A DNA stretch of 64,000 nt from Variovorax sp. (GCA_031375105.1 JANMHJ010000040.1:37798-101797); one strand, 5' to 3'. Positions 13,680 through 46,852 are shown, counted from the first letter of the stretch. Translations and numbers: made by a program. The notes: a model not told the origin generated them from the letters alone.

Positions 13680-13787
13680 CTGACTGTTGCACCCTAGCTT
13701 CAAATTTGATAGCATGTCACATAGTTCAGATACCGAAAAACACTCACTTCGCGACAACATTAATCGAGATCAACTCAAGAGGACGCA

Positions 13788-16754: not shown

Positions 16755-16942
16755 AAACAGATGTCGCTTTGTGCTTTGTTTTCCGTGAGCTACTGATTTC
16801 ATAGCAATCGGTGGTGCGCGAAAGCAAAGCTGTGATTTCAAAGCGATGTAATTCAGCAACACAAAATCGAGTTCAGATGTCGCAAGACTTGCAAGAAATT
16901 TGCATTTGCATTCATCTGCTCTCATAATCGGAGCATTCACTT

Positions 16943-25922: not shown

Positions 25923-26038
25923 TTGTCTGATTGCTAAACGACCCTAGCGCGGTATCAAATTCTGATACCCATCGCTCTGCGCCATGCGGCTGCACAAGCT
26001 TTTGAGAGCAAACGTGCATTCCCTCAGATGATCCGTTC

Positions 26039-28874: not shown

Positions 28875-31118
28875 TTATTCAAGCACAGCACGCAATTGGC
28901 GGGTGGTCAGAGCCAAGCGTCGATTGCTCACTTGAGCCAAGCTAGACATGAAGGCCAGCGCATCTGCTGGATGGTTCATCGCCCAAGTGTCAAAGTCTGT
29001 TTTGGCCAACACCAACAGGCGTGCGGCCTGTTCTCGCGTTAGGGAATGTGCGGTGCGCGGCGTGCCGTTGAGAAACGCCATTTCTCCGAAAGCTTGGCCA
29101 CGCCCCACAGTTGCCAAGCGCAGTCCACCGGTGAGTGCGGTTTCCATGGAAATGCGGCCTTGATGAACAAAATACAAATCTGTGCTTTGATCGCCAGCAG
29201 CAAAAACACTTTGATCTGTTTCCAGTTCTAAGATACGCATGCGATTCATCAGAGCAGTGCGCGCTTCATCGCTCAGCGATTGCCCCAGTTCACCCAGTGG
29301 ATCTAACTCATTGGTGGCAACTGAAGGTCGCTCTGCCAATAAACCCTCCTCCGCCCATTCGAGGGCGCGATCCACATCAGCAAACAATTGCAGCCCAGGC
29401 ATGGGGGGAAGGCGTTCGAGGTCTGTCACCGCCAAAGCCAGTGGGATACCTTTGCTATCGAGCTCACGCGCTAAGCTGCGCAAATGCGCCAATCCTGTCT
29501 CGTCCCAAGCGGGAACGCGCGTCGCATCCAAAATCACCCAGCGGTGCTGGGACATCAATCGGGCACGCACCTGTTTAGCGACAAAGGCTGCAACACCAAA
29601 GGACACAATACCTTGCAGCTCAAATACCGCAACTTGATGCATGCGCTCGGCGACCCACTGATCGGCCTCTTTGCGACGTAGTCGGCGGGAACGCATTTGT
29701 CCATTCAGATGCTCGCGGCGCAGTGCACTGGATGCCGATACCTTGAGCAAGGCCACAGTCGCAACCACCAGACCCGTGACCAAGGCGATCACGCCACCTG
29801 CAAATGCAAACACCAAAGCCACCAACCAGCTCTGTAAAAGCGTGTCTTTGGCGCGTTGCCAAATGCTTCGAAGATACATCTCTTTTGGAATTTGACGCAA
29901 TCCTGCTGTGATCAAAGCACCTGCAAAGCAAGCCATGGGCAGCCAAGACAACCACCAATGCCCGGTCAAGGTGATGCCAAGGATCAAGCCTGCATGCCAA
30001 AGGCCGGCATTCGTTGCGAAGATCCCATTTTGACTGGCCATGCGGCTGCGCGAAGCACTGGTTGAGGCTGGAATCCAGCCCATCAATGCACAAGCGGCGC
30101 CTGCCAAGCTTTCCGTCTGCAAGACATTGTTGCCATGGTCAGGCTGAGTCTGTTCAGCAGCCAGTTCTTGCCTGAACACCACTATCTCTAAGCTGTTGAC
30201 CAGCGCAGCGAGAGCAGACAGTGAGAACAAGGTGGGACCCAATTGCCGCACAACATCGAGCCATGGTAAATTTTGCCATGTCGGTATCACAATAAATGAC
30301 AGTGAGTAGGGTTCGGCGGCACGGGCTAAGGTTGGCAGCAAGTCGCCCAGAGTCCATTGCAAGGCTAAGGCAACCAGCGCTACGAGTGCGGTGGCAGCAA
30401 ACAGCCAAGGAAACTGTGGCCACCGAGCTGTCACAAAGCGCTGAAATAACCAGGCCAGCAACACCACGGCACCGGCGACGCTGGCATGCCAAGCCAGAAC
30501 CAAATCCCATACCCACAGATCGGCACCGAAGGCGATTTTCAGTTGGGATAAGACCATGGCCAAACCCACGCCAGCTGCAAAGCCCTGCATCACTGGAACG
30601 GGCATAAAGCGCGCCAAATCAGCCAATCGGAGCACCCCAAAAAGCCATTGCAGCATAAAGGTAAAAGCGATCACCAACGAGGTCACGGCCAAGGCATGTC
30701 CGGGAGACAAGCCCAGTGCATCGGCCTGTCGTACAACCAACCCCAAAACCGTGCCGTAAAGCAAAGCGATTACGGTGCTCGGTGCATAGATGACGCCGCT
30801 ATGGCGAAACAGCACAGCCATCAACACGCAGGGCAATGCAACGGCCCACATGACCATCGCCCCAATCGGAAAATCAGAACTCACCGGCGAGAGCGCCAAC
30901 AAACCCAAACCGAGCGCATGAGGTAGCGTGACAGAAGCTGCCGAAGCGCCGCCCGTAAATCCGGGCCACCGGACTAACGATGCTGGCAAGCTGGGGGCAA
31001 GGGTGGCTTCGGAGTCGATGGACGACATGTTTGAAGCGCTCAGGGACAGGCGCGGGTGCAGGCAACATCCGCGTAAAGATCTAGAGCGACGAACGAGGCG
31101 ATGGCATCCAAAGGCCAA
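28875..31118 (-). CDS. SulP-family anion transporter fused to STAS and cyclic-nucleotide-binding (CAP-effector) domains
   Basis: SulP signature region (…LAGAACALMGWIPASTSASRSRMASQNG…), a STAS domain (VAVFELQGIVSFG…ILDATRVPAWDETG) and a C-terminal cNMP-binding domain (…FGEMAFLNGTPRTAHS…). N-terminal start uncertain (31118 or internal Met at about 31028). Confidence 0.7.
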   Translation of the reverse strand: MAFGCHRLVRRSRSLRGCCLHPRLSLSASNMSSIDSEATLAPSLPASLVRWPGFTGGASAASVTLPHALGLGLLALSPVSSDFPIGAMVMWAVALPCVLMAVLFRHSGVIYAPSTVIALLYGTVLGLVVRQADALGLSPGHALAVTSLVIAFTFMLQWLFGVLRLADLARFMPVPVMQGFAAGVGLAMVLSQLKIAFGADLWVWDLVLAWHASVAGAVVLLAWLFQRFVTARWPQFPWLFAATALVALVALALQWTLGDLLPTLARAAEPYSLSFIVIPTWQNLPWLDVVRQLGPTLFSLSALAALVNSLEIVVFRQELAAEQTQPDHGNNVLQTESLAGAACALMGWIPASTSASRSRMASQNGIFATNAGLWHAGLILGITLTGHWWLSWLPMACFAGALITAGLRQIPKEMYLRSIWQRAKDTLLQSWLVALVFAFAGGVIALVTGLVVATVALLKVSASSALRREHLNGQMRSRRLRRKEADQWVAERMHQVAVFELQGIVSFGVAAFVAKQVRARLMSQHRWVILDATRVPAWDETGLAHLRSLARELDSKGIPLALAVTDLERLPPMPGLQLFADVDRALEWAEEGLLAERPSVATNELDPLGELGQSLSDEARTALMNRMRILELETDQSVFAAGDQSTDLYFVHQGRISMETALTGGLRLATVGRGQAFGEMAFLNGTPRTAHSLTREQAARLLVLAKTDFDTWAMNHPADALAFMSSLAQVSNRRLALTTRQLRAVLE

Positions 31119-31264: not shown

Positions 31265-32671
31265 TTAACTTTTGTTTTCGAAATAGGGTTGAGATTCGGG
31301 TTGATGCCAGCCCCGCGTCTTGCCCGGATTCATCAAACCATGCGGGTCGGCGATTTTTTTGAAGTCGATTTGAGCAGGGTCAATTTCTTTCATGCCGCCG
31401 TCTTCTATGGTGACAACGTGGTTGTCGAAAACCATACAACCGTCTTGCTCGAATTCTTTGATGATTTCGTAAAGGCGAGCTTTGTCGAAATAGCTCACCA
31501 GCGGTAAGCCGAAGGCGACACAACCGCCGTATTGGCGGCCGAATTCGTGGTGTTGCAAAACTTCATCGCCCCAGCGCGCCATTTGCTTTTCTACCAAGGC
31601 GATGTCGATGCCAATGCCTTGTGTCCATGGTGCGACGGTTTGTAGATTCGTCCAGCTTTTGTCTTGCTTAAGTGCGATGAGGGTGGTGTGGTTGTAGGCG
31701 CATTCAAAAGCGGGGGAGAGCTTTTCGACTTTGAGTTGCTCTTCGGTGAAGGCCATGGATTCGTAGCCAGCGTGTTTGGCGACGAGGGCACGCCAAGCCT
31801 CTAAGCTTGTGGGGTTGACCATAGAGAACACGGCATCTTTGTTGGCCGGAAAACGTGCGCCAAACTCAGCTTCGTAATACGGAGCAATGCGCCGCTCCAC
31901 TGCGGTGATGAGGAAGGCATCGACCGAGCTACCAATCGCTTCCGTGGCCTCACAGCCAAAGCGTAGGGCGGCACTGTAACTGTCAAACAGGGCGATGTGG
32001 TGCACCCAATCGACAGCGGGCTTGAGGCTTAAAGTGAGCGCGGTGATGATGCCGTTGGTGCCGTAAGCATGATGCACTTTTTGAATGTCGGCATCTTTCA
32101 ATTCAATGATGCGCGGAGTTTCTTCCAGCGTGACGACGCGAATCATCGTGACATTGCCTGCGTCTTTCAAAATCCCATTGCGCACACTGCCCGCGCCAGC
32201 ATAGCCGCCTGCGATGAACCCGCCGATGGTGGCGATGTCGCGCGTACTGGGGTACATGAGAATTTCTTGGCCGCCTTCTACGCAGCCGTCAGCTCGCACG
32301 GTTTTCTCTAAATCAGCGATCAAGATGCCCGCTTCGCAGGTCACCTTTCCAGGCGCAATACTGATCACGCGATTGAGCTGCGTGACATCCAAAATCACGC
32401 CACCTTCGAGCGGCACGCATTGGCCGTAATTGCCTGTGCCGCCGCCTCTTATCGTGATGTTGAGGCGGTGCTTGGCGCAGGCGGCAGCGACTTGGATGAC
32501 TTCCTGTTCATCGCGCGGGCTGACCATGATGTCGCCCATCTTGTCATCGAGCTCGGCTTTGAGAATGGGGCTGTACCAGTAGTAGTCTTTCGATTTCACA
32601 GCGAGCGTGTGTGCATCGCGGGTCAGCTGGATACCTTGGATGTCTTGGAGGAAGGCTTCGAAGTTTTTCAT
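31265..32671 (-). CDS. FAD-linked oxidase (PCMH-type FAD-binding domain)
   Basis: FAD_binding_4 motifs (RGGGTGNYGQ…) plus a C-terminal oxidase domain. Confidence 0.7.
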   Translation of the reverse strand: MKNFEAFLQDIQGIQLTRDAHTLAVKSKDYYWYSPILKAELDDKMGDIMVSPRDEQEVIQVAAACAKHRLNITIRGGGTGNYGQCVPLEGGVILDVTQLNRVISIAPGKVTCEAGILIADLEKTVRADGCVEGGQEILMYPSTRDIATIGGFIAGGYAGAGSVRNGILKDAGNVTMIRVVTLEETPRIIELKDADIQKVHHAYGTNGIITALTLSLKPAVDWVHHIALFDSYSAALRFGCEATEAIGSSVDAFLITAVERRIAPYYEAEFGARFPANKDAVFSMVNPTSLEAWRALVAKHAGYESMAFTEEQLKVEKLSPAFECAYNHTTLIALKQDKSWTNLQTVAPWTQGIGIDIALVEKQMARWGDEVLQHHEFGRQYGGCVAFGLPLVSYFDKARLYEIIKEFEQDGCMVFDNHVVTIEDGGMKEIDPAQIDFKKIADPHGLMNPGKTRGWHQPESQPYFENKS

Positions 32672-32763
32672 GAGGTTAGGGGTGTGAAGTCAAGTTGCCG
32701 GGCGCGAAGGGTGCGTAACTTTCGCGCCCTTCGCGTCCGGTATTGGTATTCGGTTGTTAAATC

Positions 32764-34005
32764 TCAAATCGTTGACAGTCTCTGCACAAGAGGCGCATTC
32801 ATCAAATCGCGTGCATCACTCGCATGCACGAGTAGTAAATCATTCACAGCGCAGCCTTCGCGGATCAAACCATCCCAAGGCAGACGCATGGCTTTGGAGG
32901 GCGCGCTGGTGATGCTGCTGAGCCAATCGATGGGCTGCGATAAATGGCCCATTTGAACGGCTAGCGCATAACTGGCCAAAGGGTTGTAGCTGCCGTAGGG
33001 ATAGAAGCCATCTGCGACGTTGTCTGTGGCAATGGAGCAGTTCACGCCCAGCTCGCGCGCTTCACGCAGGCGGGTGAGGCCGCGCTCTAGGGGCGTGCGG
33101 TTCCACGCGCCTTGTAAGTAGAGATTGGTGGCGGGCAGTGCGACTATATGGATGCCTGCTTGGGCGCAGAGCTTGAGCGTAGCCATGGCTTCCGCGTCGC
33201 TTTGTACGGCGAGTGAGCAGGCGTGGCCGCAGGTGACGCGGCCATGCCAGTTGTTTTTGATCGTGAGCTCGGCAATGGCTTTCAAGCCGCGTGCATCAGC
33301 GTCTAGGCCTTCGTCGGCATGGAAATCTAGATCGAGTTGGTTTTTGATGGCCAGATCAAAGACGCGCTGGAGTTTGTCGTAGATGCGTTCGTTGCGGTAA
33401 ACGAACGCGCCGAGCAGGGCAGCTTCGCCTTGGCTTTGATCACAAGTGAGGTTTGCAGTGGCGACTTCGAGCGCGAGCTCTTCGCCGTTGAAGGCAGCAT
33501 CAAAACCTTCGCCAAAAAAATCCAATGGCGTGAGGCTCACGCATTGCAGTGTGAGTCTGCCGCGCCACTGAGTGCGCAGCTTTTCAAACACGGCGAGAGA
33601 TTTCGGCGCATCTTTGTTCATCCAATCCAGATGCGTGCGCAGGGCTCGGCAGCCGTTGGTATAGGCTTCCGTCAAGGCGCGTTGCATGCGAGATTCAATT
33701 TGCGCAGCGCTCCAGCCGTCGCGGTGTTGGGCCATGCGCTCAATCGCTGCATACAAATCGCCTTCTGCTGCGCCCACTTCATCCACGACGAAAGTTTTGT
33801 CAATGTGCAGATGCAAATCGACGAAAGCAGGCAGCAGCATCTGCGCCTCATTCACTATTGAATTAATAGCATGCTGTGCAGGTTTTATAACGGCTAGAAG
33901 CCCTTTTTCTATATAAATATCGAACGCAGTTGCCTCAACAGAGAAGCCACGCACGCTGTGCGGAATCTGCACACCCGTGATAACACGTGAGCTTGCATCC
34001 ATCAA
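32764..34005 (-). CDS. Cytosine-deaminase-family amidohydrolase (CodA/creatinine-deaminase-like)
   Basis: Metal-binding HxH (PAFVDLHLHIDKTF), aligning with CodA PPFVEPHIHLDTT, and a downstream HADE… motif. Its stop overlaps the ABC permease start. Confidence 0.7.
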   Translation of the reverse strand: MMDASSRVITGVQIPHSVRGFSVEATAFDIYIEKGLLAVIKPAQHAINSIVNEAQMLLPAFVDLHLHIDKTFVVDEVGAAEGDLYAAIERMAQHRDGWSAAQIESRMQRALTEAYTNGCRALRTHLDWMNKDAPKSLAVFEKLRTQWRGRLTLQCVSLTPLDFFGEGFDAAFNGEELALEVATANLTCDQSQGEAALLGAFVYRNERIYDKLQRVFDLAIKNQLDLDFHADEGLDADARGLKAIAELTIKNNWHGRVTCGHACSLAVQSDAEAMATLKLCAQAGIHIVALPATNLYLQGAWNRTPLERGLTRLREARELGVNCSIATDNVADGFYPYGSYNPLASYALAVQMGHLSQPIDWLSSITSAPSKAMRLPWDGLIREGCAVNDLLLVHASDARDLMNAPLVQRLSTI

Positions 34006-34847
34006 CGACTTGCCTTGACTTCGCTCTCATGCCATTTGCCGAGAACGAGTTTGGAGATGAAGTTAAACAACACAAAAATCATCACACCTGTGAGCGAAAC
34101 GAGCACCAGCGCCGCAAACATTTTCGGAATTTCGGTGCGAAAGCTCGCTTCCAAGATGCGTGATGCCAAACCCGTTTGCTTACCAGCCGCGCCTGCGGTG
34201 AATTCTGCCACCACAGCGCCAATCAAGCTCAGGCCGCCGGCGATTTTCAAGCCGGCGATGAAGTAAGGCATGGCCGAGGGAATGAGCAAATGGCGCAGTG
34301 TTTGCCAAGGCGAGGCGCGATACAGCGTGAAGAGATCGCGCAAATTATGATCTGCGCTGCGCAGGCCGATCACGGTGTTGGAAAGAATGGGGAAGAAAGC
34401 CACGATCCAAGCGCAGAGTAAGAGCGCGGCCATGGTGCTGTCGATGAAAATCAAAATCAAAGGCGCAATCGCCACAATCGGCGTGACTTGCAAAACGATG
34501 GCAAACGGGAAGAGGCTGGCTTCAACCCATTTGTTGAGCGCAAATAGCGTGGCCAGAATCACGCCGCCAGTGACGGCTAAAAACAGCGCGCCAAAAGTCA
34601 CTTTCATCGTGAACCACCAGCTCTCCATCAGCGAGCCGAGATTCTCCCAAAGCGTTTGCAAAACGAGCGTGGGCGCGGGAAGGATGTAGTGCGGAATGTT
34701 GTTGATTCGCACTAAGGCTTCCCAGCCTACCAAGGCAGCAGCGAACACCACGAAAGGCAGAATTTTTAAGAGAAAAGTGCTTCCACCCGTTATATTCTGT
34801 GCGCTAGGTGCTATTAAATTCATAGTATTTTGCGAATCTTCAGACAT
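34002..34847 (-). CDS. ABC transporter permease (NitT/TauT aliphatic sulfonate/nitrate/pyrimidine-type)
   Basis: 6-TM BPD_transp_1 permease with the EAA-like loop. Overlaps the ATPase gene by 8 nt. Confidence 0.8.
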   Translation of the reverse strand: MSEDSQNTMNLIAPSAQNITGGSTFLLKILPFVVFAAALVGWEALVRINNIPHYILPAPTLVLQTLWENLGSLMESWWFTMKVTFGALFLAVTGGVILATLFALNKWVEASLFPFAIVLQVTPIVAIAPLILIFIDSTMAALLLCAWIVAFFPILSNTVIGLRSADHNLRDLFTLYRASPWQTLRHLLIPSAMPYFIAGLKIAGGLSLIGAVVAEFTAGAAGKQTGLASRILEASFRTEIPKMFAALVLVSLTGVMIFVLFNFISKLVLGKWHESEVKASR

Positions 34848-35601
34848 GATGCTCTCCCGCTTTTTGTAGTTCTTGCGAGACTTTCACGCAAAGTTGCGCA
34901 TAGCGCTCGGTGCTCCTAAAAGCGTCCGTGCGCGGATACGGTTCGTCAATGGCAATATCTGCGATCACGCGGCCTGGCCTTGCGGCCATGATGATGATGC
35001 GATTGCTCAAATACACGCTCTCGTAAACGCTGTGGGTGACGAAAACTGTGGTGAATTGCTTCGCATGCCAGAGGGACAACGTGTCGTTATTGAGCTTGAA
35101 GCGCGTCATCTCATCGAGCGCGGCGAAAGGCTCATCCATCAACAAGAGACGCGGCTCGGTGACCATGGCTCGCGCTATCGAGACGCGCATTTTCATGCCG
35201 CCGGAAAGCTCGCGCGGATAGACATGTGCAAACTGCGCCAAGCCTACTTTCTTTAATGCGTCTTCTACCTGCGAACGCGCTTGCTCGCGGTTTTTCCCTT
35301 TGAGGCGAAGCGGCAACCACACATTGTCAAACACCACCGACCAAGGCATGAGCGTAGGCTCTTGGAAGACGAAAGAAATGTCTTTGGAATGATCCTTCGA
35401 TGGATCGCTCCAAGCGATCTGACCTGAAGTCATGGGCAGCAGGCCTGCCATCATCTTGAGAGCTGTGCTCTTGCCACAGCCTGAAGGGCCGAGCAGGCTG
35501 ACGAATTGATGTTCACCAATGGCCAGATCGACATCTTGCAGAGCAAGTGTGCCGTTGTCATAGCGTTTCACGACGCGCTGGAGTTCAAGGAGTGTGCTCA
35601 T
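34840..35601 (-). CDS. ABC transporter ATP-binding protein (NitT/TauT family)
   Basis: Walker A GPSGCGKST, signature LSGGMKMR, Walker B LLLMDEPF. Confidence 0.85.
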   Translation of the reverse strand: MSTLLELQRVVKRYDNGTLALQDVDLAIGEHQFVSLLGPSGCGKSTALKMMAGLLPMTSGQIAWSDPSKDHSKDISFVFQEPTLMPWSVVFDNVWLPLRLKGKNREQARSQVEDALKKVGLAQFAHVYPRELSGGMKMRVSIARAMVTEPRLLLMDEPFAALDEMTRFKLNNDTLSLWHAKQFTTVFVTHSVYESVYLSNRIIIMAARPGRVIADIAIDEPYPRTDAFRSTERYAQLCVKVSQELQKAGEHHV

Positions 35602-35614
35602 GCTTGGGGAGAAT

Positions 35615-36445
35615 TCAAACAGGGATTTCAGGATGCTGCCGCAACGTGCTCATCGGCAAGCTGCTGATCTCTTGCAAGACTTGCGCCAGTTTTTGCGCAG
35701 AAGCGTTGATCACCGCATGGCCTTTCTCTGCTGTGGCAATAGATGCATTGCCGCAAGCACCCAACGGGTTGTAATCCTGCGTTTGCCAGCCCATTTTGGC
35801 GCTGCTTCCGTTACCTAAGATCGGGTATTTTTCATGCCGCGCTTGCGAGCTGCTTTTGAAATCACGCGCTTGAGACATGTCCACTGTCTGCGGCGCGAGA
35901 GCCAGCATCATGGAAGTTTCCATGTCGCCGCCATGTATGCCGAAGCGGTGCTCGTCTGCGCTGAAGAGACCATTGACTTCGTCGCCCAAAGGCAACGTGA
36001 ACCAGTTGACGCTGAAAACCAGCATGTCGAGTCGCACGCGTAGATCTCGCGCCACGATATCCATCACGCTGATTTGCCCGCCATGCGAATTGAGCAGCAC
36101 GAGTTTTTTGATACCTGCGCGATGCACACATTCGCCTAGCTCTGTCCACAGCGCAATCACCGTCTCAGCCTTCAAAGTGAGCGTGCCTGGAAAGCGCTGG
36201 TGCTCATTGCTTTTGCCCACTTGTTGTGTGGGTAAAAACAAAGCGCGGGTGTTGCCGAGCAAGGGCAGGGTGGCTGATACCACGCCGTTGACCAAGGTCG
36301 TGTCCACCGAGGTTGGCAAATGTGGTCCATGTTGTTCAATGGCTGCAACAGGAAGCACGGCGACGATGTCGTCTGCGCCACTGGCAGCGAGTTGGGCAAA
36401 GTTGCGGGTGGAGAGATCCGCCCAAGAGTGAGAAGGAAGTTTCAT
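35615..36445 (-). CDS. Creatininase (creatinine amidohydrolase) family protein
   Basis: LPVAAIEQHGPHLP…, a creatininase-fold metal-binding motif. First gene of the minus-strand operon. Confidence 0.75.
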   Translation of the reverse strand: MKLPSHSWADLSTRNFAQLAASGADDIVAVLPVAAIEQHGPHLPTSVDTTLVNGVVSATLPLLGNTRALFLPTQQVGKSNEHQRFPGTLTLKAETVIALWTELGECVHRAGIKKLVLLNSHGGQISVMDIVARDLRVRLDMLVFSVNWFTLPLGDEVNGLFSADEHRFGIHGGDMETSMMLALAPQTVDMSQARDFKSSSQARHEKYPILGNGSSAKMGWQTQDYNPLGACGNASIATAEKGHAVINASAQKLAQVLQEISSLPMSTLRQHPEIPV

Positions 36446-36606
36446 TTCCAGATGTTAAACGGGAAAGACGATGTCGCAGCACAGGGGGGCGGACAAACCC
36501 TGTTGGCATATTGGCCTGACTATTGCTAGTATCTTTGCTGAAACTTGACCAAACGGTCAGTTTTAAGCCATTGCACTGTTGATGCATAGCCCAAGGAGTT
36601 GCCAGC

Positions 36607-37956
36607 GTGTCTGCCCATATTTCCCCCGATATCCGCCCCGCCCGCCTGAGTGCGCAAGAATATGCCGCTCGCTTTGGTGATGCCACGCCGCGCCTCACGC
36701 CTTCTCAAGCGCTGCTAGAAGCCGAGCGCTGCTTGTATTGCTTTGATGCACCCTGCGCCAAAGCCTGCCCCACCAGCATTGATGTGCCATCGTTCATCAA
36801 ACGCATCGCAGATGGCAACCTGCGCGGTTCGGCGCGCACCATTTTGGAATCCAACCCGCTGGGCGGCATGTGTGCCCGCGTTTGCCCGACGGAAAATTTG
36901 TGTGAGGCTGTGTGCGTGCGCACCACGCAGGAAGACAAGCCTGTGGCGATTGGCCGCTTGCAGCGCTATGCGGTGGATGCGCTGATGGAAAGCAAGCAGC
37001 CCCAGATATTTACTCGCGCAGCAGTGACGGGTAAAAAAATCGCGGTGGTGGGCGCAGGCCCAGCAGGCCTCTCATGCGCTTACACGCTCGCTCGCGAAGG
37101 CCATGGCGTGGTTATTTTTGACGCTCGCCCCAAAGCGGGTGGACTCAACGAATATGGCTTGGCAAGCTACAAAACACCGAATGATTTTGCGCAGCGGGAG
37201 ATCAAATGGCTGCTAGATATTGGTGGCATTGAAATTCGCCACGATTGGAAACTAGAAACCGCGCAGCAATTGGCTACATTGCGCCAAGATTTTGATGCGC
37301 TGTTTTTGGGCATGGGCTTGTCCAGCACGCACCAGCTTGGCGTGCCCGGCGAAGATTTACAGGGCGTGCAAGATGCGGTGGATTTCATTGCTACTTTGCG
37401 GCAAACGGTTGATCTGGCCACCTTGCCTGTAGGCAGGCGCGTGGTGGTGATTGGCGGCGGGATGACGGCTGTGGATGCTTCTGTGCAGTCTAAATTACTG
37501 GGTGCAGAAAGCGTGCACATGGTGTACCGGCGTGGCGCAACAACGATGACGGCTTCTAAAGACGAGCAAGAGTGGGCACAGACGAATGGCGTGGTGATCT
37601 CTCACTGGCTTTCGCCGGTGGAAGTGATCGGAGCAAACGACCATGCAACAGGGGTGAAATTCGCGCAGCAAGCTCTTGTTGGCGGCAAGCTCGTGCGCAC
37701 CGGGCAAACGCAAGTGATCGAAGCCGATATGGTGCTCAAAGCCATTGGCCAGCAATTGGGCAACCCTGTGCTCTCGCAAGCAGGTTTCCAGCTGGAAGGT
37801 GGGCGCATAGTGACGAATACTGCTGGTTTGACCAATTTGCGCGGAGTTTGGGCAGGCGGCGACTGCCGCGCAGGCGGGCTGGATTTAACAGTGGAAGCCG
37901 TGGAGCATGGCAAGCAGTCTGCCTATGCGATCCACGCCCATCTTGGTAACGCTTGA
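36607..37956 (+). CDS. preT: NAD-dependent dihydropyrimidine dehydrogenase subunit PreT (GltD-like)
   Basis: N-terminal 4Fe-4S cysteine cluster (CLYCFDAPCAKACP…CARVCPTENLCEAVC) followed by FAD/NAD(P) Rossmann motifs (VVGAGPAGL, VIGGGMTAVD). Confidence 0.85.
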   Translation: MSAHISPDIRPARLSAQEYAARFGDATPRLTPSQALLEAERCLYCFDAPCAKACPTSIDVPSFIKRIADGNLRGSARTILESNPLGGMCARVCPTENLCEAVCVRTTQEDKPVAIGRLQRYAVDALMESKQPQIFTRAAVTGKKIAVVGAGPAGLSCAYTLAREGHGVVIFDARPKAGGLNEYGLASYKTPNDFAQREIKWLLDIGGIEIRHDWKLETAQQLATLRQDFDALFLGMGLSSTHQLGVPGEDLQGVQDAVDFIATLRQTVDLATLPVGRRVVVIGGGMTAVDASVQSKLLGAESVHMVYRRGATTMTASKDEQEWAQTNGVVISHWLSPVEVIGANDHATGVKFAQQALVGGKLVRTGQTQVIEADMVLKAIGQQLGNPVLSQAGFQLEGGRIVTNTAGLTNLRGVWAGGDCRAGGLDLTVEAVEHGKQSAYAIHAHLGNA

Positions 37957-39287
37957 ATCACGGAGTGAAAACGATGGCAAATCTCAACACCACTTTCGCT
38001 GGCATCCAAAGCCCCAATCCCTTTTGGCTTGCCTCTGCACCACCCACAGACAAAGCCTACAACGTCAACCGCGCTTTTGAGGCGGGCTGGGGTGGGGTGG
38101 TCTGGAAAACACTGGGCGAAGCGGGGCCGCCTGTGGTCAACGTGAACGGCCCGCGCTATGGCGCTTTGCTCACACCCGATCGCCGCATGATGGGCTTCAA
38201 CAACATTGAACTCATCACCGATCGCGATCTGGAGATCAACCTGAAAGAAATTACCGAGGTCAAACGCAATTGGGCAGATCGAGCCATGATCGTCTCGCTG
38301 ATGGTGCCTTGCGAAGAGCAAGCTTGGAAGGCGATTTTGCCGCGCGTGGAAGATACAGGTGCAGATGGCATTGAGCTCAATTTTGGTTGCCCGCATGGCA
38401 TGAGCGAACGCGGCATGGGCGCGGCTGTGGGGCAAGTGCCTGAATACATTGAGATGCTCACGGCTTGGTGCAAGCAGTATTCCAAGTTGCCAGTGATCGT
38501 CAAGCTCACGCCAAACATCACCGACATTCGCCTGCCCGCACGTGCGGCGAAGCGCGGCGGCGCGGATGCTGTCTCACTCATCAACACGATTAACTCCATC
38601 ATGGGTGTTGATCCCGCCACGCTCACCATGTCGCCATCCACCGGTGGCAAAGGCTCGCATGGCGGCTATTGCGGCCCTGCTGTCAAACCGATTTCACTCA
38701 ACATGGTGGCTGAGATTGCGCGTGACTCAGAGACGGCGGGCATTCCCATCTCTGGCATCGGCGGCATAGGCAACTGGCGAGATGCGCTGGACTACATCGC
38801 CCTCGGCTCAAGCAATGTGCAAGTTTGTACCGCTGCAATGGTCTATGGTTTCAAAATCGTCCAAGAGATGAAGGATGGCTTGTCGAACTACATGGACGAG
38901 ATGGGTTTTAAGAGCGTGCAAGAGATCGTCGGCAAGGCATTGCCTACAGTGTCTCCTTGGCAATATTTGAATCTCAATACCATTTCGAAGGCCGTGATCA
39001 ATCAAGACACTTGCATTCAATGTGGCCGCTGCCATATCGCCTGCGAAGACACATCGCACCAAGCAATCACATTTGTCAAAAATGGCAAACGGCATTTTGA
39101 GGTGATGGAAGACGAATGCGTGGGCTGCAATCTCTGCGTCACGGTTTGCCCTGTGCCTGAATGCATCACGCTGCGCGATTTATCCGTAGGAGAGACCGAT
39201 CTGCGGACTGGCAAGAAAGTCAGCGATGCACATGCGGATTGGACGATGCATCCGAATAATCCCATGCGTGCAAGCGTGCCTGCCTAG
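37953..39287 (+). CDS. preA: NAD-dependent dihydropyrimidine dehydrogenase subunit PreA (DHOD-like plus 2x4Fe-4S)
   Basis: Dihydroorotate-dehydrogenase-like TIM barrel and two C-terminal ferredoxin CxxCxxCxxxCP motifs. 4-nt overlap with preT. Confidence 0.9.
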   Translation: MNHGVKTMANLNTTFAGIQSPNPFWLASAPPTDKAYNVNRAFEAGWGGVVWKTLGEAGPPVVNVNGPRYGALLTPDRRMMGFNNIELITDRDLEINLKEITEVKRNWADRAMIVSLMVPCEEQAWKAILPRVEDTGADGIELNFGCPHGMSERGMGAAVGQVPEYIEMLTAWCKQYSKLPVIVKLTPNITDIRLPARAAKRGGADAVSLINTINSIMGVDPATLTMSPSTGGKGSHGGYCGPAVKPISLNMVAEIARDSETAGIPISGIGGIGNWRDALDYIALGSSNVQVCTAAMVYGFKIVQEMKDGLSNYMDEMGFKSVQEIVGKALPTVSPWQYLNLNTISKAVINQDTCIQCGRCHIACEDTSHQAITFVKNGKRHFEVMEDECVGCNLCVTVCPVPECITLRDLSVGETDLRTGKKVSDAHADWTMHPNNPMRASVPA

Positions 39288-39330
39288 GTTCACAATACCG
39301 CATAGTTCGTCTTTTTTATCCGCTTATTGA

Positions 39331-40797
<1,467 letters not shown>

Positions 40798-40823
40798 TCG
40801 TTTAATCTTTTGGAGTCAAGATC

Positions 40824-42098
40824 ATGAGCACTGCAACACTTGAAGCCAAGGTCGACGTGAACAGCCTGCGCATCAATGGTGATCGCCTCTGGGCATCGCT
40901 GATGGAGTTGGCGCAGATTGGCGCGACACCGAAGGGTGGTGTGTGCCGCCTCACATTGACCGATCTGGACAAGCAAGGCCGAGATTTGGTGACGCGCTGG
41001 GCAAGGGAAGCTGGCATGAGCGTGACCATCGACAAGATTGGCAATGGCTTCATGCGCCGCCCCGGGCGCAACAACAGCCTGCCTCCGATCATGACCGGCA
41101 GCCATATTGACACCCAGCCCACAGGCGGCAAGTTCGATGGCAACTATGGCGTGCTCGCGGGCATCGAGGTGGCGCGCACTTTGAATGATTTGGGCATTGA
41201 AACCGAAGCGCCAATTGAAGTGGCGTTTTGGACGAATGAAGAAGGCTCTCGCTTTGTGCCGGTGATGATGGGCTCAGGCGTGTTTGCCAAGGCGTTCACG
41301 CTGGAGCATGCCTATGCAGCGAAAGATACAGAAGGCAAATCTGTGAAAGATGAGCTGGCTCGGATTGGCTATGTGGGCGATCAAGAGCCGGGCGATCATC
41401 CGATTGGCGCGTATTTTGAAACGCATATCGAGCAAGGCCCGGTGCTGGAAGACCACGACGTCACGATTGGCGTGGTGCAAGGCGTGCTGGGCATTCGCTG
41501 GTTTGACTGCACCGTGACTGGCATGGAAGCGCATGCAGGCCCTACACCGATGGCGTTGCGCAAAGATGCGCTGCAAGTGGCTACGCATTTGATGCAAGAG
41601 GTGGTGGCATCTGCGCTGCGGCATGCGCCGCACGGGCGCGGCACGGTGGGCATGGTGCAGGTGCATCCGAACAGCCGCAATGTGATACCTGGACGGGTGA
41701 AATTTTCGATGGATTTGCGTAACAGCACCGATGCGCTGGTGGATCAAATGGTCACCGAAGTCAAAGCCTATGCCGACAAGCTGAGCAAAGAGTCTGGCCT
41801 GCCGATTCAAATTGAGATGGTGTCAAGCTATTCGGCGATTGGCTTTCATGCCGATTGCATTGATGCGGTGGCGCGCGCTGCTAAGAAGCTGGGTTACTCC
41901 AACATGCCTGTGGTCTCTGGCGCTGGCCATGATGCGGTGTACATGGCCAAGCTGGCTTCCAGTGGCATGATTTTCATTCCCTGCAAAGACGGCATCAGTC
42001 ACAACGAGATTGAAGATGCCAAGCCGGAGCACATCACGGCGGGTTGCAATGTGCTCTTGCATGCGATGCTTGAGCGAGCTGGCGTGGTGGGCTCTTAA
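40824..42098 (+). CDS. M20-family N-carbamoyl amino-acid amidohydrolase (beta-ureidopropionase / allantoate-amidohydrolase type)
   Basis: Amidase, hydantoinase/carbamoylase family (…GSHIDTQPTGGKFDG…, …HAGP…). Follows the dihydropyrimidinase gene. Confidence 0.8.
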   Translation: MSTATLEAKVDVNSLRINGDRLWASLMELAQIGATPKGGVCRLTLTDLDKQGRDLVTRWAREAGMSVTIDKIGNGFMRRPGRNNSLPPIMTGSHIDTQPTGGKFDGNYGVLAGIEVARTLNDLGIETEAPIEVAFWTNEEGSRFVPVMMGSGVFAKAFTLEHAYAAKDTEGKSVKDELARIGYVGDQEPGDHPIGAYFETHIEQGPVLEDHDVTIGVVQGVLGIRWFDCTVTGMEAHAGPTPMALRKDALQVATHLMQEVVASALRHAPHGRGTVGMVQVHPNSRNVIPGRVKFSMDLRNSTDALVDQMVTEVKAYADKLSKESGLPIQIEMVSSYSAIGFHADCIDAVARAAKKLGYSNMPVVSGAGHDAVYMAKLASSGMIFIPCKDGISHNEIEDAKPEHITAGCNVLLHAMLERAGVVGS

Positions 42099-42739
42099 AG
42101 GGCTAAATCGCTCAAGCCGCAGCCACGCAAAATCAGCGACACCACATGCTCTGTGGCGCGGCTGTGCGCCTTGGTGCTCAGATTGTTATGCCCCAGCACC
42201 GCGCTGACCTGCACATCAAAATCAGCATAGGTTTGCGTGGCCGCCCAGATCGTGAAAAAGAGATGCGTGCCATCGACCTTGGCCATGCGGCCTTGATCCA
42301 TCCAAGTTTGCAGCACTGCGGCTTTGGTTTTGACGAGCTTGCGTAGCTCGGTAGCCAGCAACTCTTGCACCACAGGCGCACCATGCAAAAGTTCGTTGGC
42401 AAATACTTTTGACGCATCAGGGCGTTGGATCGACAATGCCATCTTGGCGCGGATGTATTGCTCAATGGCCGTGCGTGGATCAGCATCAAAAACAATCGCA
42501 TCTGCGGGCGCGAGCCAATCGCTCAAAATACGCGCCAACACAGCGCGATAAATCGCCTCTTTGCTGCCAAAGTAGTAATGCAGATTGGCTTTGGGCAAAC
42601 CACTGGCCTGCGCAATCGCAGCCATGGTAGTGCCCGAAAAACCGGCGCGTGCAAACATGGCTTCCGCTGCTGCCAAAATCACGCGTTCATTGGTTTGACG
42701 AATCTGGCTTTGGCCAGCTTCGTCGTTGGGTTTTGTCAT
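42095..42739 (-). CDS. TetR-family regulator, RutR-like (pyrimidine utilisation)
   Basis: N-terminal TetR HTH (RVILAAAEAMFARAGFSGTTMAAIAQASGLPKANLHYYFGSKEAIY) with RutR-like C-terminus. Start set at the ATG at 42737-42739. Confidence 0.7.
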   Translation of the reverse strand: MTKPNDEAGQSQIRQTNERVILAAAEAMFARAGFSGTTMAAIAQASGLPKANLHYYFGSKEAIYRAVLARILSDWLAPADAIVFDADPRTAIEQYIRAKMALSIQRPDASKVFANELLHGAPVVQELLATELRKLVKTKAAVLQTWMDQGRMAKVDGTHLFFTIWAATQTYADFDVQVSAVLGHNNLSTKAHSRATEHVVSLILRGCGLSDLAL

Positions 42740-42851
42740 TGTTGATTGTGATTTACAAGATAGAAGGGCTTGCTGCATTTCAACAGCAAGCCCTGCTATT
42801 TTCATCTGCCTAACCCTCACCAGAAGCAGGGTATTCAGATGTGTTCAGAAT

Positions 42852-43868
42852 TTACTTCTGAGCAGCTTCCCACACAGCATGCGAGTAAGCAGCTTTGCCT
42901 GGATCTTTCTTTATCACAGGTGAGCTGCCAGCGGCCATCAAAACTTTGACGGTACGCTCAAAAGCTGCTGGCTCAAGATAACCCACTTTGGGTGTGCCGG
43001 CATTGGTGATCAGTTTGGCCACGTTTTGCATCTGGCGCAATTGCACTTTTTCAGAAGCGCTGCCCGATGTGTCAGCTGCAACCACGATCTTCGCAGCAGC
43101 TGCTGGATTTTTCACGGCCTCATTCCAGCCCTTGAGTGTGGCTTTGACAAACTTGCCCATGCGAGCCACAAAAGCAGGATCTTTCAGCTTGGATTCGAGC
43201 ACATACAGGCCGTCTTCCAAAGATGCTACGCCTTCTTTTTCATAGAAGAAAGTGACCAGATCGCTTTCTTTCACGCCCGCATCAATCACTTGCCAATATT
43301 CGTTGTAAATCATGGTGGAAATACAAGCGGCTTGGTTTTGCAACAGCGGATCGACGTTGAAGCCTTGCTTCATGATCTTGATGTCGGTATCGGGCTTGTA
43401 GCCGAGCTTGGCCATCCAGTTGAGAAACGGATACTCATTGCCGCCATACCAAACACCCAAGGTTTTGCCCTTCAGATCTTTCGGGCTGGCAACGCCGCTG
43501 CTCTTTTTGCAGGTCAGCATCAGGCCAGATTGGTTGAATACTTGAGCGATATTGACCAACGGCACACCGGCTTCGCGTGCGGCGAGTGCATCTGGCATCC
43601 AGTTCACCACGACATCGGCTTGGTTGCCAGCAATGACTTGTACAGGCGAAATATCGGGGCCGCCGGGCTTGATGGTGACATCCAATCCTGCTTCTTTGTA
43701 ATAGCCTTTGGCTTGCGCCACATAGTAGCCTGCAAACTGCGCTTGGGGCAGCCATTTCAGCTGCACCGTCACTTTTTCAGCTGCCACTGCAACGCCACCC
43801 AAGGTGAGGCTGCAAGCGGCAACTACTGTCGCCAACAGGCGAGAAGTGAGTCGAGAAGAACGCATCAT
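42852..43868 (-). CDS. ABC transporter substrate-binding protein (NMT1/THI5-like, NitT/TauT family)
   Basis: Signal peptide MMRSSRLTSRLLATVVAACSLTLGGVAVAA, followed by a periplasmic binding fold. Confidence 0.75.
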   Translation of the reverse strand: MMRSSRLTSRLLATVVAACSLTLGGVAVAAEKVTVQLKWLPQAQFAGYYVAQAKGYYKEAGLDVTIKPGGPDISPVQVIAGNQADVVVNWMPDALAAREAGVPLVNIAQVFNQSGLMLTCKKSSGVASPKDLKGKTLGVWYGGNEYPFLNWMAKLGYKPDTDIKIMKQGFNVDPLLQNQAACISTMIYNEYWQVIDAGVKESDLVTFFYEKEGVASLEDGLYVLESKLKDPAFVARMGKFVKATLKGWNEAVKNPAAAAKIVVAADTSGSASEKVQLRQMQNVAKLITNAGTPKVGYLEPAAFERTVKVLMAAGSSPVIKKDPGKAAYSHAVWEAAQK

Positions 43869-43940
43869 GAAAACTCCTTTAAGTTAAAAACACAAGCACA
43901 AAACAAATCAACCACTAGGTACATCTATGCATCCATCGCT

Positions 43941-44909
43941 TCAGGTTTCCCTGACTGATGGATGCCAAAAAATCGCACGCCGCTCCAACTGAACTAGCAA
44001 GGCGTATGCCACCGAGCCCGTGATTGCCGCCACCACAATCGCGCCCCACACCAAAGCCATATTCATCTTGGCAGATTCTGTGGAAATACGAAACCCCAGC
44101 CCTTGTGTGGGTGAACCAAAAAACTCCGCCACGATAGCCCCGATCAGCGCCAGAGTGGCATTGATTTTGAGCGCACCAAAGATAAAAGGCAATGCCGCTG
44201 GCAAGCGCAGCGCTAGCAATGTGCGCGGATAACTGGCGGCATAGCCATGCATCAATTCACGCTCTAGCTTACCTGCCGCTTGCAACCCGGCAATGGTGGA
44301 AACCAGCATGGGAAAGAAGGTCATGAGCACCACCACCGCTGCTTTGGAAGGCCATTCAAAGCCAAACCACATCACCGCAATCGGCGCTACACCCACCAAG
44401 GGAATCGCGCTGGTCAGCGAAGCCACGGGCATCAAGCCGCGCTGCAAGAAAGGCATTTTGTCAATCGCCAGCGCCACCGCAAAACCCAAGGCGCAGCCCA
44501 GCGCCCAGCCCACCAACACGGCCTTGCCCACGGTTTGCACAAAGTCGCCCCACAAAGTGGCGCTGTGCTCCAGCATGGAGCGCACGATCAACCAAGGTGC
44601 TGGCAACAAAACGCGGGGCACTTCAAACGCTGTCACCAACAGTTGCCAAAAATACACCACCCAAATGCCAAACAAACCCGCTGTGAGCAAACCCACCGTG
44701 CGCGATGCGCCCGGCAGAGAAGCGGTGCGCTGAATGCTCCAGATGGCGGCACAAGCCAAGGCGAGAGTCGCTAACCAGAAAGCAAAAGGCAAGCCGCCTT
44801 CGCCGCTCTCGGGCGGCGTGGCGAATGGAAGCAGCAGCGCCGCGCTAGATGCGCAGGTGGCTATTAGTACAAGCGTCAGCATGGAGGTTGATTTTGGCGC
44901 TGTGCTCAT
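43941..44909 (-). CDS. ABC transporter permease (NitT/TauT family)
   Basis: BPD_transp_1 permease. Start set at MSTAPKS… (44909), overlapping the upstream permease stop by 4 nt; the ORF-track start at 45005 is too long. Confidence 0.7.
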   Translation of the reverse strand: MSTAPKSTSMLTLVLIATCASSAALLLPFATPPESGEGGLPFAFWLATLALACAAIWSIQRTASLPGASRTVGLLTAGLFGIWVVYFWQLLVTAFEVPRVLLPAPWLIVRSMLEHSATLWGDFVQTVGKAVLVGWALGCALGFAVALAIDKMPFLQRGLMPVASLTSAIPLVGVAPIAVMWFGFEWPSKAAVVVLMTFFPMLVSTIAGLQAAGKLERELMHGYAASYPRTLLALRLPAALPFIFGALKINATLALIGAIVAEFFGSPTQGLGFRISTESAKMNMALVWGAIVVAAITGSVAYALLVQLERRAIFWHPSVRET

Positions 44910-45814
44910 ACACGCCCCCGGTTGCGCAAAAAGTAACGTTCTGACAAAGCCACTAGCGAGGTGAGTGCCAATCCCAGCAGCGCAGACATCACCAAGGCCG
45001 ACCAAATCTGCACCGTGTTGCCGTAGTACGAACCGGTGAGCAACCGCGCCCCCAAGCCCGCTTGCGCCCCCGTGGGTAATTCAGCCACCATCGCGCCCAC
45101 CAATCCCGCAGCCACGCCTACCCGCAAAGCAGGAAACAAAAATGGCAACGAAGCTGGCAAACGCAAAAACCACAGTGCTTGCCAAGGGCTGGCGGCATAG
45201 GTGTGCATCATCTCGGTTTCAATGCGCTGGGGCGAACGCAGGCCTTGCACCATCGCCACCGTCACAGGGAAAAAGCACAAATACATCGCAATCACCGCTT
45301 TCGGCGCAATGCCTGAAAAACCCATGCTGCCTAAGATCACCAGCACGATGGGCGCAATCGCCAACACTGGTACAGTTTGCGAGGCCACGATCCAAGGCAG
45401 CAAGGCACGATCTAGCGTGCGCGAATGCACAATGGCAATCGACAAGATCAAGCCCAGCGCCGTACCCATCACAAAGCCGAGCAGGGTTGATTGCCCAGTC
45501 ACGGCCACATGAAACAGCAAATTGCGTGGCGAATCGAGCGGCCAATCGGTCAGGCTTGACCACATGTCCAGCGCCACCTGATGCGGTGCAGGCATCAAAG
45601 GGCGCTCCATCGACATCGTGGCTTGCAGCAAGTCTTGCCAGCCCCAACCCTCTTGATCGTTCAACACGCGCTCAATCGCACCTGGGGAATTCAGCACCCA
45701 AGCCGCCACATACCAAACCAAGAACAGCACCGCCAAGACCACCGCCACAGGCAAGCCTTGATGCAGCAGCCGCGATGTGGAAGAAGGGGGCAAGGTTTTA
45801 CTCATGGTGGCCAT
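44906..45814 (-). CDS. ABC transporter permease (NitT/TauT family), second subunit
   Basis: BPD_transp_1 permease. Likely start MATMSKTLPP (about 45814). Confidence 0.7.
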   Translation of the reverse strand: MATMSKTLPPSSTSRLLHQGLPVAVVLAVLFLVWYVAAWVLNSPGAIERVLNDQEGWGWQDLLQATMSMERPLMPAPHQVALDMWSSLTDWPLDSPRNLLFHVAVTGQSTLLGFVMGTALGLILSIAIVHSRTLDRALLPWIVASQTVPVLAIAPIVLVILGSMGFSGIAPKAVIAMYLCFFPVTVAMVQGLRSPQRIETEMMHTYAASPWQALWFLRLPASLPFLFPALRVGVAAGLVGAMVAELPTGAQAGLGARLLTGSYYGNTVQIWSALVMSALLGLALTSLVALSERYFLRNRGRV

Positions 45815-46628
45815 CTGCCAAAGCCTCGCGCACCTCATGCGCCAGCGCGATGAACTCTGGGCTATCGCGCAGCCCCAAATACCGCTCATTCGGTAAGGTG
45901 GAATCGATCACTTTCACAATGCGCCCTGGGCGCGGCGACATCACCACAATGCGGGTGGACAAATACACCGCCTCGGCAATCGAGTGCGTCACAAACACCA
46001 CCGTGCGCTTTTCGCGCTGCCAGAGCTGCTGAAGCTGCTCATTGAGCCGATCGCGGGTGATTTCATCGAGCGCTCCAAAGGGCTCGTCCATCATCAAGAG
46101 CTTGGGCTCAAACGAAAGCGCCCGCGCAATCGAGACGCGCTGCTGCATGCCGCCCGAGAGCTGCCAAGGGTATTTGTTTTCAAAACCTGTGAGGCTCACC
46201 CGCGCCAAATGCTCCATCGCAGTAGCGCGCGCCTTCTCGCGCGAATGCCCCTGAATCTGCAAAGGCAGCGTCACGTTAGCCAACACGGTGCGCCAAGGAA
46301 ACAAGGCGGGCGACTGAAACACATAGCCATAAGCGCGAGCCAGCCGCGCATCTTGCGGCGACACGCCGTTGACCAACACTTCGCCACTGCTGATTTGCTC
46401 TAAATCTGCAATCACGCGCATCAGGGTGGTTTTGCCGCAACCCGAAGGGCCAATCAGAGAGACGAATTCGCCTTGCGCAATATCCAAATCAATGTCGCTC
46501 AGCGCGTGAACGGGTTGATCGGCCGTTTGATAAATCACGCTGGCATGGCGCACCTGAACAGCACGGGCTTGCTCTTTGGTGGCGGGTGCTGCTTGATGTT
46601 GTGCAGGAGGAAGGTCAGATAGGGTCAT
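45798..46628 (-). CDS. ABC transporter ATP-binding protein (NitT/TauT family)
   Basis: Walker A GPSGCGKTT, signature LSGGMQQR, Walker B LLMMDEPF. Confidence 0.85.
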   Translation of the reverse strand: MTLSDLPPAQHQAAPATKEQARAVQVRHASVIYQTADQPVHALSDIDLDIAQGEFVSLIGPSGCGKTTLMRVIADLEQISSGEVLVNGVSPQDARLARAYGYVFQSPALFPWRTVLANVTLPLQIQGHSREKARATAMEHLARVSLTGFENKYPWQLSGGMQQRVSIARALSFEPKLLMMDEPFGALDEITRDRLNEQLQQLWQREKRTVVFVTHSIAEAVYLSTRIVVMSPRPGRIVKVIDSTLPNERYLGLRDSPEFIALAHEVREALADGHHE

Positions 46629-46852
46629 TGGCGAAAATGGTGGAAATCAAAGGCAAACCGCCATCAAGGCAGCTTGCAAGCGCAGCTCGTGATCGAAAAG
46701 TTAACCATTTGGTCAACTATTTCAAAAGAATGTAAGCGATTTTCGTGCCAGACAGCACAGCAAAAACCCCCATTCAAAAGGATGAGTCAGTGCAGCGGCG
46801 GGGCGATTGGCTGCACAGCTGACGCTGCGAAGTGGCCATCAGCGCGTTTGTT

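Follow-up and report, generated by a model that had tools for sequence, protein, structure and literature searches.

Two gene modules of probably separate history at a pyrimidine-catabolism locus of Variovorax sp.

Does a run of neighbouring genes which has the look of one catabolic island encode one pathway, or two that came to lie side by side? The question is raised by a 64-kb stretch of DNA from Variovorax sp. (GCA_031375105.1 JANMHJ010000040.1:37798-101797, one strand, 64,000 nucleotides; the whole of it is called the window below, and positions are counted from its first letter), in which genes of the reductive pyrimidine pathway (Pyd genes) stand divergently beside a gene of the creatininase family and its companions. 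A previous description of this locus, made by a model from the sequence (the sequence-only reading), had listed 14 genes between 31265 and 46628 and had taken them for a composite island. Open reading frame (ORF) calling finds all 14 ORFs intact at their coordinates, and Pfam and NCBIfam scans agree with the families it assigned to them. These 14 genes are two modules, A and B, of separate history (Table 1): module A holds the Pyd genes, a repressor of the RutR/PydR type with its predicted operators and an ATP-binding cassette (ABC) importer, while module B is a cassette of five genes headed by the creatininase-family gene. We consider it likely that the two stand next to each other through a lineage-specific insertion into a variable slot of the chromosome, and that they do not form one pathway. 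Compared with relatives, all the genes are under purifying selection, with ratios of non-synonymous to synonymous substitution rates (dN/dS) of 0.02-0.19.

Linkage of the two modules and the variable slot

We fetched 80 loci with a creatininase-family gene from species-representative genomes and 80 from metagenomes, compared them by tblastn with all the proteins of the window, and made the counts on the 106 loci which had at least 8 kb of flank (flanks of up to 10 kb were used). Homologues of the creatininase-family gene are abundant in Burkholderiales, and by its homologues the lineage of the window appears to be that of Comamonadaceae akin to Brachymonas, Variovorax and Ramlibacter. The cassette, counted as present when at least two further cassette genes accompany this gene, is found in about half of the loci (52/106). 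Pyd genes lie beside the creatininase-family gene in two loci only (2/106), and both are the nearest relatives of the window, with 92-93% identity. The five core genes of the cassette are 71-94% identical in close relatives and 33-68% identical across the rearrangements of gene order seen in Alphaproteobacteria. Ramlibacter and one further genome have these five genes with genes for an NMT1 binding protein, a RidA protein and a CBS protein behind them, and no Pyd genes nearby. Across Alpha- and Betaproteobacteria the cassette has a binding protein of its own in most cases, and in many it comes with RidA or a RutR-like regulator. The creatininase-family homologues on plasmids of R. leguminosarum belong to an unrelated cluster.

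These counts bear directly on the model put forward by the sequence-only reading, according to which module B would import cytosine, creatinine or a related heterocycle, its CodA-like enzyme would convert this compound to uracil or a hydantoin, and module A would degrade the product under common RutR control. We regard such a single pathway as unlikely: in the 104 other loci the 10 kb around the cassette are free of Pyd genes, and the relatives which have no module A nearby nevertheless hold the cassette under purifying selection.

The order of the surrounding genes tells how the modules came together. The conserved backbone reads AhpC, DsbD, tRNA_SAD, AsnC, PDH E1, a slot, the creatininase-family gene, the place of the rest of the cassette, MFS-acyltransferase, the ceramidase-like gene and FIST. 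The content of the slot varies from one genome to another: it is empty in L088, where the rest of the cassette is absent as well; it holds a lactamase_B gene and a hydrolase gene in Ramlibacter (L001); molybdoenzyme, reductase and TetR genes occupy it in L085; and the Pyd block fills it in the window, L093 and L094, and in these three only. L087 and L092 have no Pyd genes, and there the creatininase-family gene comes straight after tRNA_SAD, with no PDH E1 gene within the fetched stretch. The creatininase-family gene is itself a backbone gene in Comamonadaceae, being present in relatives without the rest of the cassette.

The junction can be located between this gene and PreT. In L094, isochorismatase and cupin genes stand between PreT and the creatininase-family gene, and the RutR box with its flanks has remained beside PreT. 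On the other side, the start codon of the creatininase-family gene is abutted by a palindrome, TTCCAGATGTTAAACGGGAA, and L085, L088 and L093 have the corresponding motif (TTCCCGTTTAACATGCGGGAA) at the same place before the gene; relatives have it whether the cassette and the Pyd block are present or not. The palindrome could be an operator or a translational hairpin. It is independent of what lies upstream and shows where the backbone ends at the insertion junction. In L092, what looked like a RutR box ahead of the creatininase-family gene turned out to be part of this palindrome and was discarded as a RutR site. Since the slot varies, since the box of L094 stays with PreT and since the palindrome belongs to the backbone, we concluded that 36466-46852 (10.4 kb) is an insertion which carries both of its own operators. 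A search for terminal direct or inverted repeats at the ends of this 10.4-kb block gave nothing meaningful, and a search for near-identical DNA in plasmids gave weak gene-level matches only.

Several observations weigh against the two-module explanation or speak for a single island. The adjacency of the modules has been kept in the two nearest relatives (L093 and L094). The divergent operons share an intergenic region of 161 bp (36446-36606) with a RutR box in it, which makes co-regulation possible. RutR-like regulators accompany the cassette in Alphaproteobacteria; they have V74, W77, K/R78 and W167 at the positions of the uracil pocket, and Lys/Arg at position 78 is also found in PydR of P. 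putida (PMC4325133). In several Alphaproteobacteria the creatininase-family gene is preceded by a putative operator which contains the half-site TTGACC; this regulator and this operator point to a presumed uracil-like effector and to some link with pyrimidines. In L094 the operon with the creatininase-family gene (8677-11520) has been extended, with genes of the isochorismatase family and of the cupin type before that gene and a LysE exporter gene behind it. The isochorismatase family includes N-carbamoylsarcosine amidase and RutB. Finally, a cognate NMT1 binding protein for module B was not found in the 64-kb window, and the substrate that we propose for this module below is a guess. The RutR box, however, segregates with PreT and not with the cassette, and any coupling of module B to module A would be limited to the shared divergent intergenic region which bears this box.

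Enzymes and substrate of module B

We infer that module B is a separate conserved cassette, made of an ABC importer dependent on a substrate-binding protein, a CodA-like deaminase or hydrolase, a creatininase-family hydrolase of cyclic amides or formamides, and a flavoprotein of the VAO type. That the CodA-like and creatininase-family proteins act on cytosine or creatinine, as the sequence-only reading had it, is improbable, because the residues which bind these substrates (Q156, D314 and E122) are lost and because the scores of both proteins fall under the family cut-offs.

The CodA-like protein scores under every NCBIfam cut-off for cytosine deaminases (318 against 403 bits for PRK07583, the best of them, 130 against 483 for PRK09230 and 121 against 438 for PRK07572). 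It has the amidohydrolase fold of E. coli CodA (PDB 1k6w) and of the creatinine and 5-methylcytosine deaminases, with the same metal ligands and the same Glu217, His246 and Asp313; the metal and catalytic residues H61, H63, H214, E217, H246 and D313 are invariant in 23 of the 23 CodA-like proteins of the cassette. The residues by which E. coli CodA binds cytosine, Gln156 and Asp314, are in contrast changed in all 23, as is Trp319: position 156 has become Pro, Gly or others, position 314 is Asn and position 319 is Phe, so that Q156 and D314 are conserved in 0/23 members of the family. Because these three residues are changed and the scores fall under the cut-offs, the protein is expected not to be a bona fide cytosine deaminase and to act on another substrate. 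A further point against a single island fed by cytosine is that the plain conversion of cytosine to uracil has no use for a creatininase-like hydrolase or for a flavoprotein oxidase.

The creatininase-family protein tells a similar story. Against the creatininase model TIGR04448 it scores 97 bits, for a cut-off of 235. It has the PF02633 fold of the family to which the creatininase of P. putida (1j2t), ArfB and BrbF belong, with all ligands of the binuclear metal site and with the catalytic His (equivalents of E34, H36, D45, H120, H178 and E183 are all kept). Where creatininase has Glu122 the window protein has Gly, and its H-Y-E motif reads H-G-G.

Could this gene be an unrelated housekeeping gene, for instance one for a BrbF/ArfB-like formamidase acting on a formylaminopyrimidine, which precedes the cassette by chance? 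The gene occupies the same backbone position in many Comamonadaceae without the cassette (L088, L009, L014 and most loci at 55-70% identity), and its family includes enzymes which deformylate aminopyrimidines in riboflavin synthesis, namely BrbF, the AFRPP formamidase of S. meliloti and Brucella, and the archaeal ArfB (PMC9478397). We nevertheless hold this explanation to be very unlikely. In Alpha- and Betaproteobacteria the cassette has been rearranged many times without parting from the gene, which may come first in the operon, diverge from it, come last or be paired with RidA; the stop of the gene overlaps the start of the ATPase gene by 4 nt in relatives; and it scores 21 bits against a cut-off of 180 with the ArfB model NF033501. 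The MarR and CobW genes described in the neighbourhood of BrbF (PMC9478397) are absent here; with BrbF the comparison was by description only. A homologue from O. anthropi, Oant_3869, did not complement a brbF mutant in the same study. A literature search on creatininase-family genes together with pyrimidines, and on the combination of genes in the cassette, returned nothing relevant beyond that paper.

The FAD oxidase scores far under every GlcD-type cut-off of NCBIfam. It aligns from end to end with PDB 6v42/6v43, a "FAD/FMN-containing dehydrogenase" (E=4.6e-107), whose nearest kin among the fetched loci are the cassette oxidases of Pseudaminobacter and Mesorhizobium (74-75% identity); hence, we take the protein of this structure to be the orthologue belonging to a cassette of this kind. 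The full-length likeness gives a structure and no chemistry, and a literature search found no publication or function for these two entries. The 92-bp gap between the CodA-like and the FAD oxidase genes contains a hairpin with a very strong stem of 20 bp (32696-32742), picked up by a scan for terminator-like structures. The gap measures 120-200 bp in relatives from the clade of the window, and the two genes overlap in Ramlibacter.

As to the importer of module B, its permease is 29% identical to each permease of module A and its ATPase 45% identical to the ATPase of module A, and the missing binding protein is also absent from the clade relatives L085, L087 and L092. The sole NMT1 protein of the window is that of module A, which is 24-28% identical to the binding proteins of cassettes of type B. 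In L085 and L087 there is an NMT1 gene close to the FIST genes; it was considered as the lost binding protein and rejected, as its product has no similarity to either binding protein at E<1e-3. One may ask whether module B, deprived of its binding protein, is a pseudogenised remnant. This was rejected: its dN/dS is 0.03-0.19, also in relatives without module A. As the cassette is under purifying selection, we concluded that it is functional and that its binding protein must be encoded elsewhere in the genome.

In Alphaproteobacteria the companions of the cassette are often an NAD(P)H oxidoreductase with the flavodoxin fold, RidA, a ferredoxin of the 2Fe-2S type and a TetR_C_3 regulator resembling RutR. 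The fullest ones are on plasmids of Leisingera (L180) and "Roseateles XES5" (L181), at 7500-18000; genes for a D-glycerate dehydrogenase-like protein and a DAO-type FAD oxidoreductase are divergent from the cassette there, and downstream lie the TetR_C_3 regulator, RidA and the 2Fe-2S ferredoxin, with the NAD(P)H oxidoreductase in L180 only. Our best guess is that module B would import and degrade a substituted amino-heterocycle by deamination, oxidation and amide hydrolysis. This compound would most likely be pyrimidine-like, because the accompanying regulators keep W77 and W167 along with Lys/Arg78, because of the TTGACC operators, and because members of the creatininase family deformylate aminopyrimidines.

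It is possible, though doubtful, that the cassette constitutes an undescribed route for the import and degradation of a substituted pyrimidine or related amino-heterocycle, with a uracil-pocket repressor, a route which would match the Rut pathway in function and not in descent, and that in the lineage of the window it may have come under the RutR-controlled intergenic region of the Pyd genes. The full cassette resembles the Rut system of E. coli (rutABCDEFG-rutR) in composition only: there is a flavoprotein, an NAD(P)H-dependent flavin/quinone reductase, an amidohydrolase, a RidA-family protein, a transporter and a RutR-like regulator. No enzyme of the cassette is homologous to RutA, RutB, RutD, RutE or RutF, and the copy in the window has five genes only, so the analogy is to be read as a lead. 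Salvage of the pyrimidine of thiamine was also considered for the cassette, as its NMT1 binding protein resembles ThiY, and was set aside as unsupported: neither a thiamine pyrophosphate riboswitch nor one of another kind was found close to the cassette of the window or to those of seven alphaproteobacterial loci.

Table 1. Coordinates of the features of the two modules in the window
Feature	Position	Strand	Remarks
Module B	31265-36445	minus	creatininase-family hydrolase, ABC ATPase, permease, CodA-like amidohydrolase, FAD oxidase
FAD_binding_4 (VAO/PCMH-type) oxidoreductase, 468 aa	31265-32671	minus	PF01565, 80 bits
CodA-like amidohydrolase, 413 aa	32764-34005	minus	PF07969 and PF01979
Single ABC permease, NitT/TauT type	34002-34847	minus	PF00528; weak SsuC, TauC and NtrB matches
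ABC ATPase of module B	34840-35601	minus	PF00005
Creatininase-family metallo-amidohydrolase, 276 aa	35615-36445	minus	PF02633, 233 bits
Module A	36446-46852		PreT/PreA, dihydropyrimidinase, M20 beta-ureidopropionase, RutR/PydR-type repressor, NMT1-type ABC importer
Start-proximal palindrome	36446-36465		conserved in relatives
Sigma-70-like promoter candidate, PreT operon	36503-36532	plus	TTGGCA, 18-nt spacer, TAGTAT with TG; 9/12 positions; consensus match only
Predicted RutR/PydR operator 1, TTGACCAAACGGTCAG	36545-36560		2 mismatches to TTGACCAnnTGGTCAA; 47 bp upstream of the PreT start
PreT, NAD(P)H/FAD/Fe-S subunit of dihydropyrimidine dehydrogenase	36607-37956	plus	Fer4_20 and Pyr_redox_2
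PreA, FMN/Fe-S subunit	37953-39287	plus	NF006183, 705 bits (cut-off 335)
Dihydropyrimidinase	39355-40797	plus	TIGR02033, 584 bits (cut-off 393)
M20-type N-carbamoyl-beta-alanine amidohydrolase (beta-ureidopropionase)	40824-42098	plus	TIGR01879 (hydantoinase/carbamoylase model), 422 bits (cut-off 204)
RutR/PydR-type TetR repressor, 214 aa	42095-42739	minus	TetR_N and TetR_C_3
Terminator-like hairpin (inverted repeat)	42765-42794	minus	between the binding-protein and regulator genes
NMT1/THI5-type periplasmic binding protein	42852-43868	minus	PF09084, 146 bits
ABC permease of module A	43941-45005	minus	PF00528; true start probably shorter than the longest ORF
ABC permease of module A	44906-45889	minus	PF00528; true start probably shorter than the longest ORF
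ABC ATPase, first gene of the importer operon	45798-46628	minus	PF00005
Predicted RutR/PydR operator 2, TTAACCATTTGGTCAA	46701-46716		1 mismatch to TTGACCAnnTGGTCAA, best in the window; 73 bp upstream of the ATPase start

Module A as a portable pyrimidine unit

The canonical Pyd pathway announced by the sequence-only reading is there: PreT/PreA, the dihydropyrimidinase and the M20 enzyme are identified by profiles and by matches to known structures. PreT matches residues 69-507 of mammalian dihydropyrimidine dehydrogenase, that is, its N-terminal half, and also PDB 4ylf, "dihydropyrimidine dehydrogenase subunit A"; its gene overlaps that of PreA by 4 nt. The M20 enzyme matches PDB 8c46, an "N-carbamoyl-beta-alanine amidohydrolase" (E=7e-126), and the beta-alanine synthase 1r3n (E=3e-82).

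The longest ORF of the regulator spans 42095-42820, and the ATG at 42739 is its likely start (the regulators of relatives have 211 amino acids). Its YcdC-like C-terminal domain scores 177 bits with PF08362 of Pfam, and it matches E. coli RutR (PDB 3loc) with E=3e-44. RutR binds uracil by L74, W77, L78 and W167, and PydR, which represses the reductive pathway, has kept these residues (PMC4325133). All four pocket residues of the regulator (L74, W77, L78 and W167) are identical to those of E. coli RutR. As it falls under the cut-offs of the RutR equivalogs of NCBIfam (193 bits against 368 for TIGR03613 and 180 against 230 for NF011584), we named it RutR/PydR-like and not a RutR orthologue; in this form the RutR-type regulator of the sequence-only reading is upheld by its TetR_C_3 domain and its intact pocket.

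We searched the whole window for operators, allowing up to 2 mismatches to TTGACCAnnTGGTCAA and taking the expectation from shuffles. This 16-mer, proposed by the sequence-only reading, is one which we take to be the site of E. coli RutR, although we did not find it confirmed in a paper. What the literature supports is a semi-palindromic RutR site of 15 bp only (PMC4325133). Three matches were observed where 0.14 were expected, and the two best coincide with the promoter regions of module A, one in each. The first lies in the interval 36446-36606, where the sequence-only reading had suggested looking for it, just downstream of the sigma-70-like promoter candidate. The same reading had taken 42740-42851 for another divergent promoter in which to search for a RutR box; this is a gap between genes of the same strand, which contains a hairpin and no RutR box. 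It had also ended the island at 46628: its gene content stands, while its extent falls short, as the second box lies just beyond this position and the unit therefore reaches about 46852. A further RutR-like box of the window, TTGGCCAGTTGGGCAA (59474-59489), is intragenic, and a perfect TTGACCAGATGGTCAA lies inside a nadD-like gene of L088 (19406-19421); these may be chance matches or intragenic RutR sites.

The relatives of the importer connect it with pyrimidines. Its binding protein is 74% identical to a protein of an IncFII plasmid of Klebsiella and 60% identical to one of S. meliloti, both encoded beside Pyd genes (hydA and the M20 gene); for the other components, identity to the Klebsiella plasmid importer is 59-68% (permeases) and 73% (ATPase). 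On this plasmid of Klebsiella pneumoniae (NZ_CP056374.1, L090; 9140-19437) the same nine genes, for the ATPase, two permeases, the binding protein, TetR, PreT, PreA, hydA and a Zn hydrolase, are enclosed between IS1 and IS26, and RutR-type boxes lie upstream of PreT and 20 bp upstream of the ATPase gene, which are the two positions found in the window. The carriers of the nine-gene unit are conjugative IncFII plasmids of clinical and wastewater Klebsiella. The importer adjoins Pyd genes in Klebsiella, Sinorhizobium (S. meliloti), Thalassospira and Qingshengfaniella. In Azospirillum thermophilum its neighbours include genes with the annotations aspartate-aminotransferase-family protein and methylmalonate-semialdehyde dehydrogenase, which we take to be the downstream steps for beta-alanine.

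In S. meliloti, SMc01823-27 has been described as a uracil/uridine transporter, whose over-production accompanies hypersensitivity to 5-fluorouracil, which is indirect evidence of transport (PMC3484140, PMC2848018). From its gene order, we infer that locus L091 is SMc01819-27. By orthology and by the synteny with Pyd genes, the importer of module A would be of this ABC type, and it is predicted to transport uracil or uridine. The sequence-only reading had offered a pyrimidine or a cyclic amide as its substrate; the first of these fits the Pyd neighbours in four genera and the S. meliloti counterpart.

Compared with PydR and pydAX of P. putida and with SMc01819-SMc01827 of S. meliloti, module A has the same set of Pyd enzymes, a TetR_C_3 repressor with a uracil pocket, operators of the RutR type and an NMT1-type importer (PMC4325133, PMC3484140). 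The gene order of S. meliloti is different, as PreTA is elsewhere and cupin and GNAT genes are interspersed. Module A differs from the known Pyd clusters in its regulator, which is under the RutR cut-offs, and in its place, a chromosomal slot of variable content in a Comamonadaceae-like genome. Since the same genes, boxes and importer recur elsewhere, as on the Klebsiella plasmid and in S. meliloti, we concluded that module A is a portable unit of nine genes for importing pyrimidines and degrading them reductively under RutR/PydR control, a kind which is already known.

The identities of the genes, the sequences and positions of the operators, the pocket residues and the conserved synteny are observed in the DNA; for the repression, the inducer, the transported substrate and the enzyme activities, the named families and the literature suggest the following course. 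The repressor would sit on the two palindromic operators, one downstream of the PreT promoter and the other upstream of the importer operon, from which uracil would presumably free it. Uracil or a close relative would then be taken up by the NMT1-type ABC importer. PreT/PreA would reduce uracil to dihydrouracil, the dihydropyrimidinase would open the ring, and the M20 amidohydrolase would finally release beta-alanine, ammonia and CO2.

Surroundings of the locus and meaning of the adjacency

All close relatives have a conserved block of backbone genes beside the cassette (23839-28806 in the window); its products are a protein of 245 amino acids, one with a FIST domain, a ceramidase-like membrane protein and an MFS-acyltransferase fusion. 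A second variable slot separates the MFS-acyltransferase gene from that of the FAD oxidase; in the window it is occupied by the gene of a SulP-STAS transporter fused to a cyclic-nucleotide-binding domain (28875-31118), and in relatives by a DUF900 gene, a reverse transcriptase gene or nothing.

The adjacency of the genes at this locus most likely means an insertion into a variable slot and not a shared pathway, and a merged pathway annotation would then be wrong. Module A, which recurs on Klebsiella plasmids with insertion sequences on either side, is a portable unit of pyrimidine utilisation. The cassette of module B is found in many Alpha- and Betaproteobacteria, and one of its members has a solved, apparently unpublished structure (PDB 6v42). 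Its enzymes are routinely misnamed cytosine deaminase and creatininase, and finding their substrate would correct many database annotations.

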